From contig VMFW01000010.1 in assembly GCA_007376265.1 (NCBI GenBank), positions 1,945-65,944 of the forward strand: a DNA stretch of 64,000 nucleotides, given 5' to 3'. This stretch comes from Parcubacteria group bacterium Gr01-1014_20 (lineage in GTDB: Bacteria > Patescibacteriota > Minisyncoccia > UBA6257 > 2-01-FULL-56-20). The notes below the pieces were generated by a model. It had not been told where the DNA came from. It saw nothing but the letters and a program-made list of their open reading frames with translations, and searched no databases. Position numbers and translations under genes: made by a program. The first letter of the stretch is position 1. Each line of letters opens with the position of its first letter. Shown here piece by piece: positions 1 through 57,107 of the stretch.

Positions 1-855
<855 letters not shown>

Positions 856-5137: not shown

Positions 5138-5563
5138 GTGTCGACGGCGAACGTTCTCGTTTCTGGCAGTTCTGGCCAAGAACTCCTGGACCCCACATGG
5201 GAAGTAACTAAAGATACTGAAGACACATCGCTTCAAGATGGCAGTAACCTCACGCTGGAGGCGGTGCCGTTTCTGAAAACAGGAGAAGATTGCATCGACG
5301 GTGAAAAGCTCGAGATCCGCGCGGCTGATCTCGGAACACCTCATGGAAAGAAGCTGGTCAAAACTCTTTTCGACAATCGGGATAAGATCGATCCGAGCTG
5401 GCGAGCCTTCTGTCTCGTCTTTCTCGGGACCGTGGGCAAAGATAAGGCTAGCAACCGAAGAGTCCTTAGCCTCAGTTGGAACGGCAAAGACTGGTACGTC
5501 GGCTTCAGATGGCTGGACCGGAAATGGGGAAGTCGCGCTCGACTCATAAGAATTGCAAATTAA
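5138..5563 (+). CDS. hypothetical protein (141 aa)
   Basis: AAGGAGG RBS 5 nt upstream of GTG 5138, and an intrinsic terminator directly downstream. No recognisable motif. Confidence 0.5.
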   Translation: MSTANVLVSGSSGQELLDPTWEVTKDTEDTSLQDGSNLTLEAVPFLKTGEDCIDGEKLEIRAADLGTPHGKKLVKTLFDNRDKIDPSWRAFCLVFLGTVGKDKASNRRVLSLSWNGKDWYVGFRWLDRKWGSRARLIRIAN

Positions 5564-14403: not shown

Positions 14404-15459
14404 TTAGATGTTTTCGATTGATTCCCAGGGAAGACCGGGTTTGCCAAAGTGGCCATAGGCGGCCGTTTGCAGATAGATCGACTTCCGAAGATCGAGGCGC
14501 TCAATAATGGCTTTGGGCCGAAAATCGAATTTCTGATTGACCAGACTCGCAATGCTCTCGCCTTTTTCGTTCAGCGCTTCAACCATTAAGGGTTCGGCTC
14601 GGCCGATGGCGTAGGCGACGGAAACTAAACACTTTTCGGCGTGGCCGTTCGTCACTAAATTTTTAGCCACAAAACGCGCCATGTAGGCGGCCGAACGATC
14701 AACTTTGGTTGGATCCTTACCGGAGAAAGCGCCGCCGCCGTGAGGAACGAGACCACAATAGGTGTCCACCATGATTTTACGACCGGTTAGGCCAGCATCG
14801 CCAGCGAAGCCACCGATCACAAATTTGCCTGTAGGGTTAACGAGGATTTCAATGTCGTCTATGTGGCCAATAACTGGCCTTATAAGATTATGGATTAAAG
14901 CCTGCTTGATTTCGGCTTGAGAAACATTTTCGGCGTGCTGACAACTGACCAGAACAGTTTTGATTTTATCGCCGTGAACGGTGAGTTGAGCTTTGCCATC
15001 AGACCCTAGCCAATCAAATTTCCCACTCTTTCTCATTTTTTCTAAACCTTTGGTTAGGGCGTGCACCAGGAAAACACTTTTGGGCATAAACTCACTTCCA
15101 GGATTATTTTCGGCGTAACCGTACATAATGCCTTGATCCCCTGCCCCACCAGTATCGACGCCTTGCGCAATGTCGGGCGATTGTTTAACGAGGTGAGAGA
15201 TGATTTTGAGCTCGTCGGTGTAGCCGAGATTTTTATAAACATTTTTGGCGATTTCTTCAGCCTCAAATTTGGCGCTCGTGGTCACTTCACCGCCTATAAC
15301 TAGGAGCCCATGGGAACCCATGACTTCGACGGCGACGCGGCTTTTGGGATCTTGTCTTAGACATTCATCTAAAATCGCATCGGAGATTTGGTCGCAAACT
15401 TTGTCGGGATGACCAGAGGTAACGCTTTCAACGGTAAAAATACTTGGTTTGTAGAACAT
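14404..15459 (-). CDS. metK: S-adenosylmethionine synthetase
   Basis: ESVTSGHPDKVCDQISDAILD, GAGDQG and DTYGG motifs; 351 aa. Confidence 0.95.
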   Translation of the reverse strand: MFYKPSIFTVESVTSGHPDKVCDQISDAILDECLRQDPKSRVAVEVMGSHGLLVIGGEVTTSAKFEAEEIAKNVYKNLGYTDELKIISHLVKQSPDIAQGVDTGGAGDQGIMYGYAENNPGSEFMPKSVFLVHALTKGLEKMRKSGKFDWLGSDGKAQLTVHGDKIKTVLVSCQHAENVSQAEIKQALIHNLIRPVIGHIDDIEILVNPTGKFVIGGFAGDAGLTGRKIMVDTYCGLVPHGGGAFSGKDPTKVDRSAAYMARFVAKNLVTNGHAEKCLVSVAYAIGRAEPLMVEALNEKGESIASLVNQKFDFRPKAIIERLDLRKSIYLQTAAYGHFGKPGLPWESIENI

Positions 15460-15529: not shown

Positions 15530-15700
15530 GGGGCGAAAATAAAAATCTTCCACGAGGAAGATATAAGTTTCGACGACTTTATCTTTCCTCGGAGTCCTTT
15601 CGGACCGAGGCTGGATTTAGCACCTTCTCTTTTTTACAAAGAGCGGTTGCTGGCGGGTCATCGAGCCAGAACTCTCGCCGCGCTCAAGATAAGCTATTAA
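15530..15700 (-). promoter_or_regulatory. SAM-I (S-box) riboswitch with its terminator in the metK leader
   Basis: The minus strand reads GCTTATCTTGAGCGCGGCGAGAG..CTGGCTCGATGACCCGCCAGCAACC...GGTGCTAAATCCAGC...GAAAGATAAAG. These are the S-box conserved blocks (P1 5' strand, kink-turn/P2 region and GGTGCTAAnTCC) with P1 closure. A terminator hairpin (CGAGGAAAGATAAAG...CTTATATCTTCCTCG plus a T-run) follows. Track ORF 15473..15700 is therefore spurious. Confidence 0.8.
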
Positions 15701-19548: not shown

Positions 19549-20864
19549 CTACTTTACGTGGTGTTTGGATTTTATTTTGTCTTCTTCTTCGGATTCGTAC
19601 TCGAGTTTGGTTTCTTTGGCTTTTTCGGACATGGCTTTTAATTCTTTTTCGGAGAGCTTACTTAACTCTTTGACGCGAGATTCGAGGTGTTCGCGAGTGT
19701 TTTTTTCGGGATCGTCTAAAACTTCTTCTAGCAAGATGGATAGAATGTAGCCAACTTTGGGACCAGGATCAAGTTTGGCGATCTGCATCACGTCAGCTCC
19801 GTTGACTCTTAACATCTTCGGGGAGATGGGATCGCTTTTGACCTTATCAATCATGAAGAGCAAGTGGCGGAGCTTGTAGGGTACAGCTTTCGGGACGCCG
19901 GAGCCGATGCGATCGGCTTCACGGACTTTGATTAAATCGTCGATATTTTCCGGACTGACGCGGGCGAGAAAACGGCGGACGCCAGCGGCGGTGACTTCGC
20001 CCACGTTGTAGTAGAAGAGATGGTGGCGAACCAAGTGAATTACTTTTTCACCGAAGTCCTTTGGAAAACGTAGGCGATCAACGATTTGGGCAGCAATACG
20101 ACCGCCAACAACTTCGTGGCCATGGAAGGTGGAATCTGGGCCGTCCCCTCTTTTGGTGGCGGGCTTGCCAACATCGTGCAGAAGTGAGGCAAGGCGGACT
20201 AACAATGAATAGTTTTGTTTGGCGGTGTAGGCGAGCGCCCGGACGTTGTGTTCGAAGACGGTGTAGATGTGATGCTTATTTTGCCCGCAACCCAAACCAT
20301 CACGAAGTTCGGGAACTATATTCTTAAGAAGATTGAGTTCCTCGAGAAGAATAATGCCTTCTGCCGCGCCGTCGGCCATCAAGATTTTTATAAATTCATC
20401 GCGGATGCGCTCTTTGGCGATAGTCTCCAAAAGGCCGGCATTTTTTTCGATGGATCGGCGAGTGTTCAGATCGATCTGGAAATTGAGCTCGGTGGCCAAT
20501 CGAACGGCACGCATTAAGCGGAGCGCATCTTCCCCAAATCTCTCATCGGGGATGCCGACGGTTTTGATTATATTTTCTTTTAAATCTTTCTCGCCGCCGT
20601 AAGGATCAATGATTTTGTCGAACTTGCCTTTAGCAAAATTGATGGCCATGGCATTCACGGTAAAATCTCGGCGAGATAAATCTTCTTCAATGCGAAAATT
20701 TTTTGGATTTCTTCTGGCTTAGCGTTAGTGGCAACATCCCAATCCTTTGGATCGCGATTTAATAAAAGATCGCGAACACAACCACCCACCAGATAAGCCT
20801 GGTAACCAGCTTTTTCGAGAGTCTCGGCAACAGATTTTACTTCGTCGGGAACCTCTAGTTTCAT
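19549..20864 (-). pseudogene. cca: CCA-adding enzyme (tRNA nucleotidyltransferase) split into two frames; the head-domain segment between GGxVRD/DxD and RRDFTxNAMA is missing
   Basis: ORF 20655..20864 encodes ...YLVGGCVRDLLL...DWDVATNAKPEEIQKIF and then runs into a stop. One frame over, the sequence reads NFRIEEDLSRRDFTVNAMAI and continues through the HD domain (19549..20658). About 45 aa, equivalent to Bst CCA residues PKTIDVG...VTFVRS, are absent, and the junction sits at an A6T4 run. Confidence 0.6.
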
Positions 20865-25397: not shown

Positions 25398-26087
25398 CTA
25401 GGGGTTAATTAGCTCGTAGGCAACGATTTTTAGATTGTTTTTGTAACTAGTATCGTAGGTCCCGTCGAATTTATAATCTTTGGGAATTTGGATTGAAAAC
25501 CTGTAATTTAGTCCCCTGGTCAGTTCTTTGGGGTTGTGGATAAAAGCAACGAGTTGGTTATCGTTGATCTGATAACTCTTGGCGGTGGGGATGTTTTTGC
25601 CCTGCATTAAAAAAACGTGAGGTTCCAGACAGGTGGCGCAGAACTTGCCGGTTGGGCATGGTGGACATTCGTAGATACTGCGAACCTGGGCTTCGGTGTT
25701 GTAGGTTCCTTCTAGCAAGCTGATGGTGTTGATTTGCCGAATGGTATAGAGAGGCAAGCTGGCTTGGGGTTTTGGGAGTGAAAGAACACAGATGCCCGAA
25801 AGGCACTTGGGGTTCGGTGTTTCACAAGATGAGGTTTTCGCGTAGTCTGGGCAAAATTTTATCGCTCCCTTTTCATATCTAGGTAGAGAGAATTTATTGA
25901 GAGCGGTTCCACAGTGGTCGCAGTTTTTAGCGATAACGACACAATCAATATCTGAGAGACACGCCTGGTCGTCCGGATTGATGCTCACGATTTCTTCAGG
26001 GAAGATCTTTTCCTTGGATAAAAAAATAAAACCAGATGTACCCGCGAGGACACATACAACAGAGATAAACAAAATTCTTTTTTTCAC
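25398..26087 (-). CDS. secreted Cys-rich hypothetical protein
   Basis: Signal peptide and ~16 Cys, including CPPCPTGKFCATC. Confidence 0.45.
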   Translation of the reverse strand: MKKRILFISVVCVLAGTSGFIFLSKEKIFPEEIVSINPDDQACLSDIDCVVIAKNCDHCGTALNKFSLPRYEKGAIKFCPDYAKTSSCETPNPKCLSGICVLSLPKPQASLPLYTIRQINTISLLEGTYNTEAQVRSIYECPPCPTGKFCATCLEPHVFLMQGKNIPTAKSYQINDNQLVAFIHNPKELTRGLNYRFSIQIPKDYKFDGTYDTSYKNNLKIVAYELINP

Positions 26088-26100
26088 GATTTTTATTTTT

Positions 26101-26265
26101 GTATGTGGCTGGGGTGGGGAATCTCACGTCGCCTCGCATTCGCGAGACTCTTTCAAAACCCTCGGTTTTGAATTATTTCCGACACGGGGAAAACTTTCCT
26201 TTTCCCCGACCCCCTTTTGCGTTCGATCCTCAGCCAATAAAGTTTTTTTGGGGGGGATGGTCTTG
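26101..26265 (-). mobile_element. tRNA-Met-associated miniature element (copy A), bounded by a second copy of the tRNA 3' end
   Basis: A 23-nt direct repeat of the tRNA-Met 3' end (GATTCCCCACCCCAGCCACATAC) sits at 26101-26123, against the original at 26266-26291. Internally there is an antisense T-arm fragment (GGCTGAGGATCGAAC), the hairpin GGGGAAAAggaaagTTTTCCCC and GCGAGGCGACGT. The element is homologous to copy B at 56881-57036. Confidence 0.45.
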
Positions 26266-26270
26266 GTATG

Positions 26271-26344
26271 TGGCTGGGGTGGGGATCGAACCCACGACCT
26301 TAGCGTTATGAGTGCTACGCTCTAACCAACTGAGCTACCCAGCC
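26271..26344 (-). tRNA. tRNA-Met (anticodon CAT; elongator type, G1:C72), CCA not encoded
   Basis: GGCTGGGTAGCTCAGTTGGTTAGAGCGTAGCACTCATAACGCTAAGGTCGTGGGTTCGATCCCCACCCCAGCCA; no C4/C5 lysidine-type acceptor determinants. Confidence 0.85.
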
Positions 26345-26384
26345 GTCAGATAAATTTTTATCATTAAAAGGCGTTTTTGACAAT

Positions 26385-26645
26385 TCAGACTCTAAAAACT
26401 ATAATTCGCACGCGGGTTGGTGGAAGAGTTACCATAGGAGCCCCATAAGCTTCAGGAGTCGGTGCGAGTCCGGCACCCGCAACACGCTTCGGTTTTCTCT
26501 TTTTAAGGGACGGCTCGCACTTTTCCGGCGAAAGTGCGGCCTGTATCTCACCGCTATGGTCCCGATCTATTATCGGGACACCAAGCCATAGCGCTTCCGA
26601 TAACCCCTTAAAAAGAGAAAGCCTCCGCTATCCAATTGGAATTTA
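26385..26645. ncRNA. candidate structured RNA or miniature inverted-repeat element: a perfect 16-bp long-range inverted repeat enclosing two strong hairpins (class unknown)
   Basis: TTTCTCTTTTTAAGGG (26473-88) pairs perfectly with CCCTTAAAAAGAGAAA (26584-99). Inside are a 12-bp hairpin (26491-26520) and a nested 8+7-bp hairpin (26531-26572). The ~260 nt has no ORF and lies between a terminator and tRNA-Met. Confidence 0.3.
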
Positions 26646-26677
26646 TAAAAAAGCCCCAGACTCGTGTCGGGGCTTTT
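26645..26677. terminator. Rho-independent terminator downstream of the NYN-domain gene (the hairpin also reads as a terminator on the + strand)
   Basis: AGCCCCagactcgtgtcGGGGCT flanked by an A-run upstream and a T-run downstream. Confidence 0.6.
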
Positions 26678-26683
26678 GGAAAT

Positions 26684-27640
26684 TTAGCTTTCTGAAGTGA
26701 CTCTCTTCACAGGCATAAGATTGATGGCCGCGGGATGGGCTCGGTTAGGGCGATAATATTTAAAGACGGTGACTCCGCCAATCACGACGGCTTTTTTCTC
26801 GATGAGCCCCTTGTCAGCAATAGCTCCCATAGCGGCTTCTAAATCTTCCTTGGTGTATATCTCTCCCCACTGATCAATGATGCCTTTCCAGGCTAAGTTG
26901 ATAATGTGACGAAAAGGATATTGGTTTCTTTCGGGCGTGGTGAGTTCAAAGACTTTCCGAACGACAACCTTGATGAAAGCAATGGCTTGTCTGGTCTCCT
27001 CATGAAGACTGGTTTCACCCCTTGCGACTAGTTCGAGAATCCTAGAAAATTCCCGTTTGCGGGAATCGAACAAGAGGGTCTCTCCACCGCCGTCCTTATC
27101 GTTTATTTTATCTCCCAGATCAGATGGGCGAAGAATAATAACTTCTTTATCCATGTCCTCGATGGGGTGGATAAAGTTGGGATCTTTAAAATCACTGTCG
27201 TCGCTAACCACAATAATCTTTTTTACCAGGGAATTTCTGGCAAGAGATAACCCAGACGATTTGAGATAGGAATCAACCTGATCGCGATCCTTTAGCCCTC
27301 TCGGACAAATCACCACTTTGAAACCAGCGTTATTGAGAGAGTTTATCAACCGAACTTTTCCCTCAAATTCGGGATGAGCTTCCTCGTCGAAAAGTTGGGC
27401 AGACAAGAAAACCTCAGCGAAAGCTACCGTCCCAAAGCTTCGACAATAATCCCTTAGCTTCGTGAAGGAAACTTTATAGCTGGCTTCGCTAGCACACAGA
27501 ACGACGTTGTCGAAGTCCACCAGGATTGCGACTAAATTGTTACTATCGGTACCGTTTTCGGTCTTTGAATCGCCGGGGGTTCCGATCTTAGCGACTTTAG
27601 GAAAAAGCCAGGCGACAAATCTATCAGCAATATTGCTCAC
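26684..27640 (-). CDS. NYN-domain (LabA-like) predicted RNase with a C-terminal OST-HTH/LOTUS-like region
   Basis: N-terminal LVAILVDFDNVV is the NYN start-strand motif; the ~90-aa C-terminal helical domain resembles OST-HTH. Confidence 0.5.
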   Translation of the reverse strand: MSNIADRFVAWLFPKVAKIGTPGDSKTENGTDSNNLVAILVDFDNVVLCASEASYKVSFTKLRDYCRSFGTVAFAEVFLSAQLFDEEAHPEFEGKVRLINSLNNAGFKVVICPRGLKDRDQVDSYLKSSGLSLARNSLVKKIIVVSDDSDFKDPNFIHPIEDMDKEVIILRPSDLGDKINDKDGGGETLLFDSRKREFSRILELVARGETSLHEETRQAIAFIKVVVRKVFELTTPERNQYPFRHIINLAWKGIIDQWGEIYTKEDLEAAMGAIADKGLIEKKAVVIGGVTVFKYYRPNRAHPAAINLMPVKRVTSES

Positions 27641-38259: not shown

Positions 38260-38351
38260 AACAAAAGCATACCAGTTTAAGCGTTGTATATAAACAATGC
38301 TTTGAACCGACCTACGGTTATTTTGCGCGGGCGACCGGCAATCGAACGTCG

Positions 38352-38591
38352 CTAAATTAAGTGCTTGTTTCTAAACGCCATACCTGAACCAGCTTTTAGA
38401 TATTTCTCAAAGTCATATGCCTTTTTCTTGTCCAGAAACCCACAAAACCATATTAGATTAAATGGTTTTTTGTGCGATGTAGATTTTGTTGAACCTTCGT
38501 TATGCTCTTTTAGTCTTTCTTCTACGTCTGCAGTTACCCCAGTATAATAGCTATCGTCTTTGATACTCTGCAAGATGTAGACGAAATACAT
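38352..38591 (-). CDS. GIY-YIG nuclease family protein (stand-alone, 79 aa)
   Basis: YFVYILQS...YYTGVT.D...RL.EHN is the GIY-YIG core. Confidence 0.7.
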   Translation of the reverse strand: MYFVYILQSIKDDSYYTGVTADVEERLKEHNEGSTKSTSHKKPFNLIWFCGFLDKKKAYDFEKYLKAGSGMAFRNKHLI

Positions 38592-38721
38592 AAGAACATT
38601 GTAAAAGAACGCCCTCCGTCGCGTAAAGCTATGGAGGGCACTCCTTCTTGGGCTTCTATTATTTGCACTCTTTCGCTTCCGCTACAAGGTGCGTGCACTA
38701 CGAAGCCTTGGCGAAGTAGTG

Positions 38722-56802: not shown

Positions 56803-56874
56803 GTCCCTGTAGCTCAATGGATAGAGCGTAGCCCTGCGAAGGCTGAGATCGAGGTTCGATTCCTCGTAGGGACA
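56803..56874 (+). tRNA. tRNA-Arg with the unusual genomic anticodon GCG, CCA not encoded
   Basis: GTCCCTG-TA-GCTCAATGGATAGAGC-G-TAGCC-CTGCGAA-GGCTG-AGAT-CGAGGTTCGATTCCTCG-TAGGGAC-A; resembles Arg(ACG) tRNAs but with G34. Confidence 0.7.
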
Positions 56875-56880
56875 CAAGTT

Positions 56881-57036
56881 TTTAAATTTATGCTTAAAAT
56901 CTTTACGAGGAATCGAACAGGGAAAGGGGTCGAGAAAACGAGAGTTTTCCTGTGGCGGAGCTCACGAACCGATGGGTTTGTGGGAGCCTCGAACAAAGCG
57001 AGAGGCGACGTTCGCTTCCTCGTAGGGACACAAGTT
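56881..57036 (+). mobile_element. tRNA-Arg-associated miniature element (copy B), bounded by a 27-nt direct repeat of the tRNA 3' end
   Basis: DR1 GTTCGATTCCTCGTAGGGACACAAGTT sits at 56854-56880 (inside the tRNA) and DR2 GTTCGCTTCCTCGTAGGGACACAAGTT at 57010-57036. Internally there is an antisense T-arm piece (CGAGGAATCGAAC at 56906-18), the conserved block AAAGGGGTCGAGAAAACGAGAGTTTTCC, and GCGAGAGGCGACGTT. Confidence 0.45.
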
Positions 57037-57107
57037 TTCGGGATCCATATTAAACTAACTTGAAAATAGATGAAGCTCTAATGTAATATTAAGCCCAAGT
57101 AAATTCT

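Follow-up and report, generated by a model that had tools for sequence, protein, structure and literature searches.

Introduction

The tyrT operon of Escherichia coli is followed by 178-bp rtT repeats, each of which ends in the last 19 nucleotides of tRNA-Tyr, and a small RNA, RttR, is processed out of the tyrT transcript. To our knowledge, the rtT repeats have stayed unexplained since 1978, and we know of no established origin or function of RtT. Copies of tRNA 3' ends are also left by tyrosine integrases of the T-loop class, whose repeats run from the T-loop to the 3' end of the tRNA. Here, we describe a gene-less unit that lies behind tRNA genes of bacteria of the Candidate Phyla Radiation (CPR, Patescibacteria) and that carries such a tRNA 3'-end repeat. 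Two copies of it are found in a stretch of 64,000 nucleotides, called the window below, of the Parcubacteria group bacterium Gr01-1014_20, a metagenome-assembled genome (MAG) (contig VMFW01000010.1; the window has 46.5% G+C and seven tRNA genes). Copy A follows a tRNA-Met gene and copy B a tRNA-Arg gene.

As will be seen below, the two copies belong to one family, in which a conserved core, folding into a four-way junction, is flanked by two opposite-orientation arms made of the 3' half of the host tRNA. We will argue, with a probability that we put at roughly 0.45, that the unit is an integrative mini-element which is non-autonomous and targets specifically the T-loop of tRNA genes, the enzyme being encoded elsewhere. 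We found no description of the element in the literature, the one relevant paper being concerned with group I introns in anticodon loops, and the family is apparently undescribed.

Results

Copy A occupies positions 26101-26285 on the minus strand, as an insertion of about 165 bases behind the tRNA-Met (CAT) gene (26270-26344, minus strand). This host tRNA is complete, with the CCA unencoded (ARAGORN; 70.3 bits with the Rfam tRNA model). All parts of the copy are on the minus strand and are given here in the direction of the tRNA. The proximal direct repeat (26266-26285), located by repeat search and by local alignment to the right arm, consists of tRNA positions 59-73 and the 5-nucleotide trailer CATAC. 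It is followed by a spacer of 30 nucleotides (26236-26265), which is unconserved between copies and measures from 10 to ca 135 nucleotides in the other members of the family. Next comes the left arm GGCTGAGGATCGAAC (26221-26235), identified by inverted-repeat search and by alignment to the host as the reverse complement of tRNA positions 53-62 and 68-72, that is, with an internal 5-nucleotide deletion relative to tRNA-Met. The conserved core, GGGGTCG...CGACG, has 87 nucleotides (26127-26213) and is supported by pair counts, by its fold and by a match to the covariance model R1 described below (26114-26229, 88.1 bits, E = 3e-22). The right end is made up of an element-borne stub, CGACG followed by TGAGAT (26121-26131), and of the distal direct repeat (26101-26120), found by repeat search and alignment. 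The latter is the host-matching part of the right arm and has again tRNA positions 59-73 and CATAC. The repeated sequence TCCCCACCCCAGCCACATAC is exact between 26266-26285 and 26101-26120, its two occurrences being 145 nucleotides apart and 165 nucleotides from start to start.

The initial annotation of copy A had named a direct repeat of the tRNA-Met 3' end with its trailer, an antisense T-arm fragment, a hairpin (GGGGAAAAggaaagTTTTCCCC, 26186-26207) and a segment next to the distal repeat (GCGAGGCGACGT, 26126-26137). All of these are present, and only the spacing of the repeat, given as 143 nucleotides, has to be corrected to the 145 above. The antisense fragment is no incidental piece. It is the left arm, and it forms an inverted repeat with the right arm around the core.

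Copy B (56850-57038, plus strand) has the same parts in the same order behind the tRNA-Arg (GCG) gene (56803-56875; ARAGORN and the Rfam tRNA model). Its left arm TACGAGGAATCGAAC (56904-56918), from inverted-repeat search and alignment, is complementary at 15/15 positions to tRNA-Arg 53-67, and its core of 85 nucleotides (56926-57010) lies in an R1 match at 56910-57023 with 122 bits. The right arm (57006-57038), recognized as a direct repeat, reads CGACG, a T-loop with A58 changed to C, and tRNA positions 59-73 with the trailer CAAGTTTT. A repeat had been noted here before, and it extends further than was given, covering 33 nucleotides (56850-56882 and 57006-57038) with 2 mismatches (94% identical).

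The 85-87 nucleotides between the arms of the two copies align block for block, and the mean column identity is 75% over the whole aligned region, tRNA-derived ends included. The motif ATCGAAC-N3-RAARGGGGTCG occurs within the window only at A and B, against 0.21 occurrences expected, and folding compared with shuffled sequence gives z = -3.3 for copy A and z = -5.0 for copy B. The interior common to A and B that had been postulated is thus borne out by the alignment, and the outcome that would have spoken against it, a likeness confined to the tRNA ends, did not occur. The R1 scores of 88 and 122 bits likewise agree with the earlier proposal that A and B are members of a single family, in which the interior is conserved and the tRNA-derived ends vary with the host.

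Five copies went into the covariance model R1, and its search covered ca 1.9 Mb of control DNA besides the copies themselves. It scores copy A with 88 bits, copy B with 122, and three copies in other genomes, designated L080, L150 and L191, with 128, 115 and 113 bits, respectively. Two further matches are L050, with 64 bits, and L268, with 27.5 bits (E = 4e-6). The family thus has seven copies from six genomes, with E-values from 1e-33 to 4e-6, and the control DNA holds no real R1 match beyond them. L080 (behind a tRNA-Pro in an unclassified MAG) and L150 (behind a tRNA-Met on a metagenome contig) came from pattern scans of sequence collections, and L191, with a full core behind an initiator-type tRNA, came from the comparison of orthologous sites given below. 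L050, a decayed copy behind an initiator-type tRNA in a Candidatus Saccharibacteria MAG, was found by R1, as was L268. The latter, from a close relative of the window genome, has an initiator-type host and is truncated at the start of its contig. The range of the family accordingly covers Parcubacteria, an unclassified MAG and a Saccharibacteria MAG, and the host tRNAs are of at least four kinds (elongator Met, initiator Met, Arg and Pro), with a single copy at each. The unit has ca 150-270 nucleotides, of which 85-97 form the core, and is gene-less. Its layout is the same in every copy: host tRNA, spacer, left arm, core, CGAC and right arm.

In the pattern scan of the genome collection, at least two true copies (L080 and L050) were among the matches listed, the rest being GC-rich chance matches, and in the metagenome scan 1 of 50 loci was real. 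Scans of viral contigs returned 0, 0 and 68 loci, and R1 shows all 68 to be chance matches, the best of which, L201, is the coding region of an ATPase. At the element, Rfam yields only the host tRNAs, at the gathering score as well as at E up to 10 (25900-26700), and RtT has no match at the gathering score in the whole window. ARAGORN and the Rfam tRNA clan also detect only the host tRNAs, and the element itself gives no tRNA, tmRNA or tRNA-like match. Three metagenome contigs (L001, L191 and L268) break inside the element, as expected of a repeat.

We now consider the fold of the core, for which pairs were counted in a model-based alignment of six full copies, fitted to the model. Standard pairs fill 92.4% of the pair cells, compared to 39-58% with the partners slid, and 8 of the 24 pairs change on both sides. 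These values are reached in 0 of 500 shuffles. The core is a four-way junction, in which an invariant closing helix P5 (GUCG/CGAC) is combined with the hairpins P2, P3 and P4, which have tips of variable length. As predicted for copy A, P5 closes P2 (26186-26207), P3 (26152-26172) and P4 (26132-26147) on the minus strand. The joining strands are strongly conserved: RRAARGGG precedes P5, P2 and P3 are joined by GUGKCGGA, and P3 is linked to P4 by GAG or AAAG. Between copy A and L268, P3 is identical while P4 differs by compensatory changes. Eight of the pairs are G-U, and on the opposite strand these would be A-C mismatches, which means that the fold belongs to the tRNA-sense strand. The evidence for a conserved fold is good but not final, coming as it does from six sequences and an alignment fitted to the model. 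A covariance model and a search for compensatory changes across genomes had been proposed as checks on the hairpin, and the double changes just described are the result. The interior had earlier been called cargo. It is conserved indeed, and rather than a passenger it is more probably the working part, be it a structured RNA or a recombination site in folded form.

The two arms constitute an inverted repeat of the host tRNA 3' half, which is fixed at its inner ends (position 53) and variable at its outer ones. The left arm carries, in reverse complement, the host T-loop, the T-stem's 3' strand and an acceptor stretch of variable length, reaching from position 53 to 61-73, and its last base before the purine-rich joiner is complementary to tRNA G53 in all copies. 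Its length is 11 nucleotides in L080, 14 in L150 and 15 in copy B, to be compared with 53-62 plus 68-72 in copy A, and in the decayed L050 it covers the whole tRNA 3' half and the trailer. The right arm has, after CGAC, the G53 with a T-loop-like pentamer, then the host sequence from 59-60 to 73, and 0-15 nucleotides of trailer. It doubles as the distal copy of the direct repeat, which starts at position 59-60 in all copies with known host and varies in length from 15 to 38 nucleotides.

The duplex of the arms spans at least positions 54-62 in all copies and is always mismatched within the T-loop (55-60), so that every copy has the imperfect palindrome characteristic of a folded att site. The mismatch is at 58 in copy B, at 59 in L080 and L150, at 60 in L050 and at 55-56 in copy A. 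In L191 it is at 56 and 59, when the initiator tRNA of the window is taken as a proxy for the host. The left arm agrees with the real tRNA, and the variant base sits in the right arm. We also considered the mismatch as a reverse-transcription signature of 1-methyladenosine at position 58, and rejected this since only one copy has it there.

In copy A, the TGAGAT of the stub to the left of the distal repeat is a pseudo T-loop of the initiator-tRNA type, different from the host T-loop TTCGATC. The same stub, CGACGTGAGAT, is found in copy A, on an elongator tRNA-Met, and in L268, on an initiator-type host, where it precedes the initiator-type acceptor strand CCCCCCACCGCA, with a strong terminator behind the latter. 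The phenylalanyl-tRNA synthetase subunit PheS of the L268 genome is 87% identical to that of the window, so that one subtype of the element is seen on two different tRNAs in close relatives. L191 and L050, which have initiator-tRNA hosts, show the related stubs TGTGAT and TGCAAT. The shared stub on different hosts means that the element brings along the sequence as far as about position 58, whereas that from 59-60 onward is host-specific. The tRNA-derived ends had all been regarded as host-specific, and this holds from position 59-60 outward, while the 53-58 stub left of the repeat belongs to the element.

Two copies have terminators on the proximal side. In L150, a hairpin GGAAAACCGC-TTT-GCGGTTTTCC follows the tRNA, and only its first half is inside the proximal repeat. 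In L050, there is a canonical terminator in the spacer. Since the L150 hairpin spans the end of the repeat, a plain staggered-cut duplication would complete it only by chance. The simpler reading is that the proximal stretch (59-73, trailer and terminator) is one piece supplied by the element, and that the distal arm is the displaced native end, analogous to attL and attR. The terminator after the right arm of L268 fits a native trailer. As to the earlier expectation that the element copies its target, the terminators of L150 and L050 favor instead an arrival with a matching tRNA 3' half, in the manner of integrase elements.

Orthologous sites were compared by means of the 229-residue gene downstream of copy A. 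In L190 (72% protein identity), the tRNA-Met is followed by 18 nucleotides and then by the start codon, which is an empty site. In L188 and L189 (80% identity), the spacer, a left arm with one mismatch, the joiner and the start of P2 are followed by the start codon. These are decayed copies, which keep only the first ca 35 nucleotides of the unit. In L191 (69% identity), the full core is behind a different, initiator-type tRNA. In close relatives, 6 distinct loci with 8 tRNA genes were searched, and none has a copy near these genes. With sites that are empty and decayed, and a subtype that sits on different tRNAs, the element has been gained, lost and moved between tRNAs. The insertion-like behavior suspected from the window is hereby supported, L190 and L188 providing the empty and decayed sites and L268 the same subtype on another tRNA.

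There are also two solo right ends. The L150 copy has one of them, a second, older end, in tandem behind it. The other belongs to the window (38325-38352, minus strand) and has GCGACG, TTCGATTG, tRNA-Asp positions 61-73 and an A, left arm and core both being absent. The stop codon of a 79-residue GIY-YIG gene ends in the first G of this sequence. A relative, L173, has a tRNA-Asp with the same leader and the GIY-YIG gene, and no solo right end.

The GIY-YIG gene deserves a comment of its own. It lies after the tRNA-Asp (38352-38591, minus strand) and encodes a GIY-YIG-only protein (Pfam E = 1e-18), with homologues in ca 100 clusters, nearly all of them from Patescibacteria. It is preceded by a conserved, hairpin-rich leader (38592-38720, GCACTACTTCGCCAAGGCTTCGTAGTGC...), and related loci are L172, L173, L178 and L269. 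In L172 there is no tRNA, and the leader is preceded by a degenerate 3' fragment of tRNA-Asp, which suggests that the GIY-YIG gene is itself part of a tRNA-linked mobile unit. The gene was tried as the autonomous parent of the mini-element and rejected, as L173 lacks the distal repeat and other GIY-YIG loci have no tRNA-end repeat.

The neighbors of the copies are housekeeping genes, including those of PheS, AlaE, QueA, GatA, iPGM, RNase Y and RecG. The surroundings of the four copies checked, and the 30 open reading frames of the window that were tested, yielded no integrase, transposase, resolvase or reverse transcriptase, and there is no open reading frame between the repeats of the element. 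Between the tRNA and the unit, copies A and B have no promoter-like or terminator-like site, which makes it probable that both are co-transcribed with their tRNA. L050 and L150 are unlike A and B in this respect, because the terminator of the tRNA intervenes.

Some other observations on the tRNA genes should be mentioned. An initiator-type tRNA at 26411-26483 (plus strand), with a C1-A72 mismatch and the non-canonical T-loop TGCGAGT, is called by ARAGORN and missed by the Rfam tRNA model at the gathering score. It is preceded by a 12/12 sigma-70 consensus promoter (26377-26405, plus strand). The T-loop of the L050 initiator tRNA, TGCAATT, is odd as well. In L190 (1-110), the intact tRNA-Met is preceded by a partial 5' copy (positions 1-14 and ca 19-30) with the 16-nucleotide palindrome TCCGCCAGCCGGCGGA inserted in the D-loop, a mirror-image duplication of a tRNA part. 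In L269 (8990-9190, minus strand), a pseudo 3' part from ca position 44 lies 89 nucleotides downstream of a tRNA-Pro, with CGA of its T-loop replaced by a 24-nucleotide hairpin, and with a GIY-YIG gene and resolvase and transposase fragments nearby. This looks like another, different T-loop-targeted event. L150 has a tRNA-Arg-like anticodon arm and 3'-end fragment (5240-5345, minus strand) downstream of its tRNA-Arg (TCG). The spacer of its element contains the palindrome GTTGCGG-AAA-CCGCAAC, which is a tRNA-Met 3' end with its complement and may be a core-less remnant of an earlier unit.

Elsewhere in the window, the gene of the CCA-adding enzyme (19672-20864, minus strand) looks disrupted. 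Compared with the 488-residue orthologue of L193, residues 1-57 and 97-448 are in different frames and ca 40 residues of the catalytic head are missing, which indicates a pseudogene or an assembly error. Most tRNA genes of the window have no encoded CCA, and this makes the disruption worthy of note. An S-adenosylmethionine (SAM) riboswitch (15576-15695, minus strand, 66.5 bits) is directly upstream of the S-adenosylmethionine synthetase gene (14404-15459), which is an ordinary arrangement, and the 5' part of a 23S rRNA gene (1-854, minus strand) runs off the start of the window.

Discussion

The reading that we favor is that of an integrative mini-element, consisting of the four-way-junction core, the constant right-end stub (CGAC-G and a T-loop-like pentamer) and the two arms. 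In the mechanism that we propose, the arms would pair within a single strand, giving a duplex that mimics the tRNA gene at ca 54-62 with a small central mismatch. A recombinase from elsewhere in the genome could then exchange strands with the chromosomal T-loop at ca 58-60. The element's own 59-73 and trailer, sometimes with a terminator, would keep the tRNA intact, and the displaced native 3' half would become the distal repeat. The same principle underlies the folded attP of phage CTX and the integron attC, and is here proposed to apply to a tRNA target. What the loci display directly are the family with its variety of hosts, the compensatory changes, the arm geometry with its fixed junction, the presence, absence and decay at sites, and the lack of nearby mobility genes. 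A step of recombination at the T-loop, a form folded as a single strand and the kind of enzyme involved are what we infer from them.

It is important to point out that several observations weigh against an integrative element. No recombinase candidate was found near the copies checked, and neither a free circular form nor an excision junction was seen. No copy with cargo genes turned up, all seven being miniature, and we know of no direct precedent among integrative elements for a mobile unit of ca 150 nucleotides. Neither blastn against phage and plasmid collections nor the viral collections gave a match. The count of at least seven copies is a lower bound, as the two large collection scans used strict patterns. 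The conserved bases, which are mostly in the junction strands, and the eight G-U pairs fit RNA at least as well as folded DNA. Simple integration leaves unexplained how both arms come to match a new host.

The main rival is an RNA gene similar to RtT, in which a small RNA is made from the tRNA trailer transcript, the arms mimic the stack of acceptor and T-stem so that the enzymes of tRNA processing release and trim the RNA, the core acts in trans, for instance in regulation or by binding a protein, and the repeats arise by local duplication. We regard this as possible but on balance doubtful. The architecture is that of E. coli RttR, the tRNA-sense strand has the compensatory changes and G-U pairs, strong conservation of the unpaired junction bases extends over distant CPR classes, and nothing like a promoter or terminator separates copies A and B from their tRNAs. 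Selection on an RNA, however, does not explain why the repeats contain non-functional trailer bases. The end of the helix varies from position 62 to 73, so that there is no uniform minihelix geometry, a terminator cuts off the unit from the tRNA in L050 and L150, and the empty and decayed sites and the one subtype on different tRNAs would still require an insertion at the DNA level. It should be stressed that the mobile-element reading and the RtT-like one are not mutually exclusive, and A and B may have an added role at the RNA level beside mobility.

Less probable than a small RNA is that the copies are scars of large integrative elements, such as prophages or islands with a tyrosine integrase acting at the T-loop, the core being an attP arm left after deletion of the cargo. 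Such elements classically leave a repeat that reaches from the T-loop to the tRNA end, and the tandem right ends of L150 and the window's solo right end behind the GIY-YIG gene after tRNA-Asp could be read in the same way. This explanation is nevertheless improbable, given that the seven cores are all 10-135 nucleotides from the tRNA with no gene between and no link to an integrase. Compensatory changes in three hairpins are needless for arms that bind protein as duplex, an inverted left arm is foreign to a lambda-type attP, and the viral, phage and plasmid collections are without matches. An even smaller chance is given to a retro-mobile element akin to short interspersed nuclear elements (SINEs), whose RNA would be reverse-transcribed at a nick in the T-loop. 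A variable second cut would produce the duplication of 15-38 nucleotides, and the solo right ends would be 5'-truncated copies. The fixed right junction with a variable left one, the two copies that consist of a right end only, and the substitution or 1-nucleotide indel at 58-60, which could be a joining scar, would all suit such a process. The L150 terminator hairpin that spans the repeat boundary would be obtained from a plain target duplication only by chance, and the antisense arm matched to the host is unexplained. Moreover, there is no reverse transcriptase near the copies checked, and one survey (PMC13011429) reports no group II introns in 95 complete Patescibacteria genomes, which weakens the retro-element models. 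Finally, partial tRNA duplications of other kinds do occur (the L190 5' fragment, the L150 pseudo tRNA-Arg and the 3' part of the L269 tRNA-Pro), which might suggest independent 3'-end duplications with a chance similarity between them. A core that is conserved in seven copies from six genomes at the E-values given above, and that shows covariation, refutes this.

A number of other structures were considered. Box C/D-like guides, K-turns, split or permuted tRNAs, retron non-coding RNAs, IS110 bridge RNAs and IS200/IS605 ends were rejected because either the geometry fails or the protein partner is absent. A group I intron in a tRNA gene was discarded as well, there being no Rfam match, an uninterrupted host tRNA, and a core of 85-97 nucleotides as against more than ca 200 for an intron.

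To return to the integrative mini-element, a bolder version of it, to which we assign rather little weight, would make the unit of ca 150 nucleotides self-contained and retargetable. Its specificity would reside wholly in the two arms, rewritten for each tRNA, the core would recruit a host enzyme, and the family would represent a new, programmable, T-loop-specific class of which E. coli rtT would be a relic.

CPR genomes are tiny and have little spare DNA, and a tRNA-tied fold of 90 nucleotides that is common to Parcubacteria and Saccharibacteria is probably not junk. Should it prove a mobile element, we would know of no smaller site-specific integrative unit, and it would show how an essential gene can be occupied without harm. 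Should it prove an RNA, tRNA operons would have a new class of small RNA, and E. coli RtT its first outside comparison. In either case, the architecture suggests a general route by which tRNA 3' halves are duplicated, direct and inverted, around a folded core. On the practical side, the element breaks metagenome assemblies at tRNA loci.

Among the known systems, miniature transposable elements with inverted repeats (MITEs) share with the CPR units the small size, the lack of genes, the non-autonomous character, the terminal inverted repeats and the flanking direct repeats. The inverted repeats of the CPR units, however, are copies of the host tRNA and differ from site to site, and no parent transposon is known. 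With an identity of only ca two thirds, the two copies in the 64 kb of the window speak against a recent burst, and the direct repeat has a variable length of 15-38 nucleotides. The many near-identical copies, constant inverted repeats and target duplication of fixed length that define MITEs were not found in the family.

The elements of T-loop integrases and those of their derivatives that have lost all genes, the cis-mobilizable elements (CIMEs), are similar to the CPR units in that the direct repeat runs from the T-loop to or beyond the end of an intact tRNA, and in their tandem ends and empty and filled sites. The CPR unit, on the other hand, has only 150-270 nucleotides with no integrase or other gene, and it has a folded core with compensatory changes and an inverted copy of the target beside it. 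It also resembles the folded single-strand sites CTX attP(+) and attC, with which it was compared by eye. There as well, two inverted target-like sequences ca 90 nucleotides apart pair and so mimic the target duplex, with an unpaired center and a variable, branched tip. In the same comparison by eye, the inner ends of the CPR copies with standard T-loops, ...AAC / G|TT..., resemble the R'' and R' boxes of attC, while the initiator-hosted copies read ...GCAC / GTGC.... The target also differs, being a tRNA T-loop rather than dif or attI, and no link to Xer or IntI was seen.

The likeness to RtT (RF00391) is one of architecture. The difference is in the sequence, as there is no sequence or model similarity: RF00391 finds no match at E up to 10 in 25900-26700, and R1 finds none in the E. 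coli tyrV-rttR locus. Since neither model detects the other family, the CPR family is an analogue of RtT and not a member of it. The rtT repeats are known at one tRNA (Tyr) in enterobacteria, as a tandem array, and they carry CCA, whereas the CPR units are single, occur at no fewer than four kinds of tRNA with retailored arms, and carry the trailer. The CPR right arm also reaches in to position 53 via the constant CGACG stub. In both systems, a unit in the tRNA trailer ends in a copy of the tRNA 3' end from the T-loop, and an internal antisense segment pairs with it. In the E. coli tyrT-tyrV locus that we examined, the rtT repeat starts at T-loop position 58 (AATCCTTCCCCCACCACCA), and the unit holds GGGGAAGGAT, which is positions 59-68 in reverse complement. 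The annotated RttR, whose 3' end is at a pseudo-CCA, is predicted to fold with these two segments paired, so that they close a core of ca 90 nucleotides with three hairpins and leave a tRNA-like tail free. The right ends of the E. coli repeats stand in tandem, as they do in L150.

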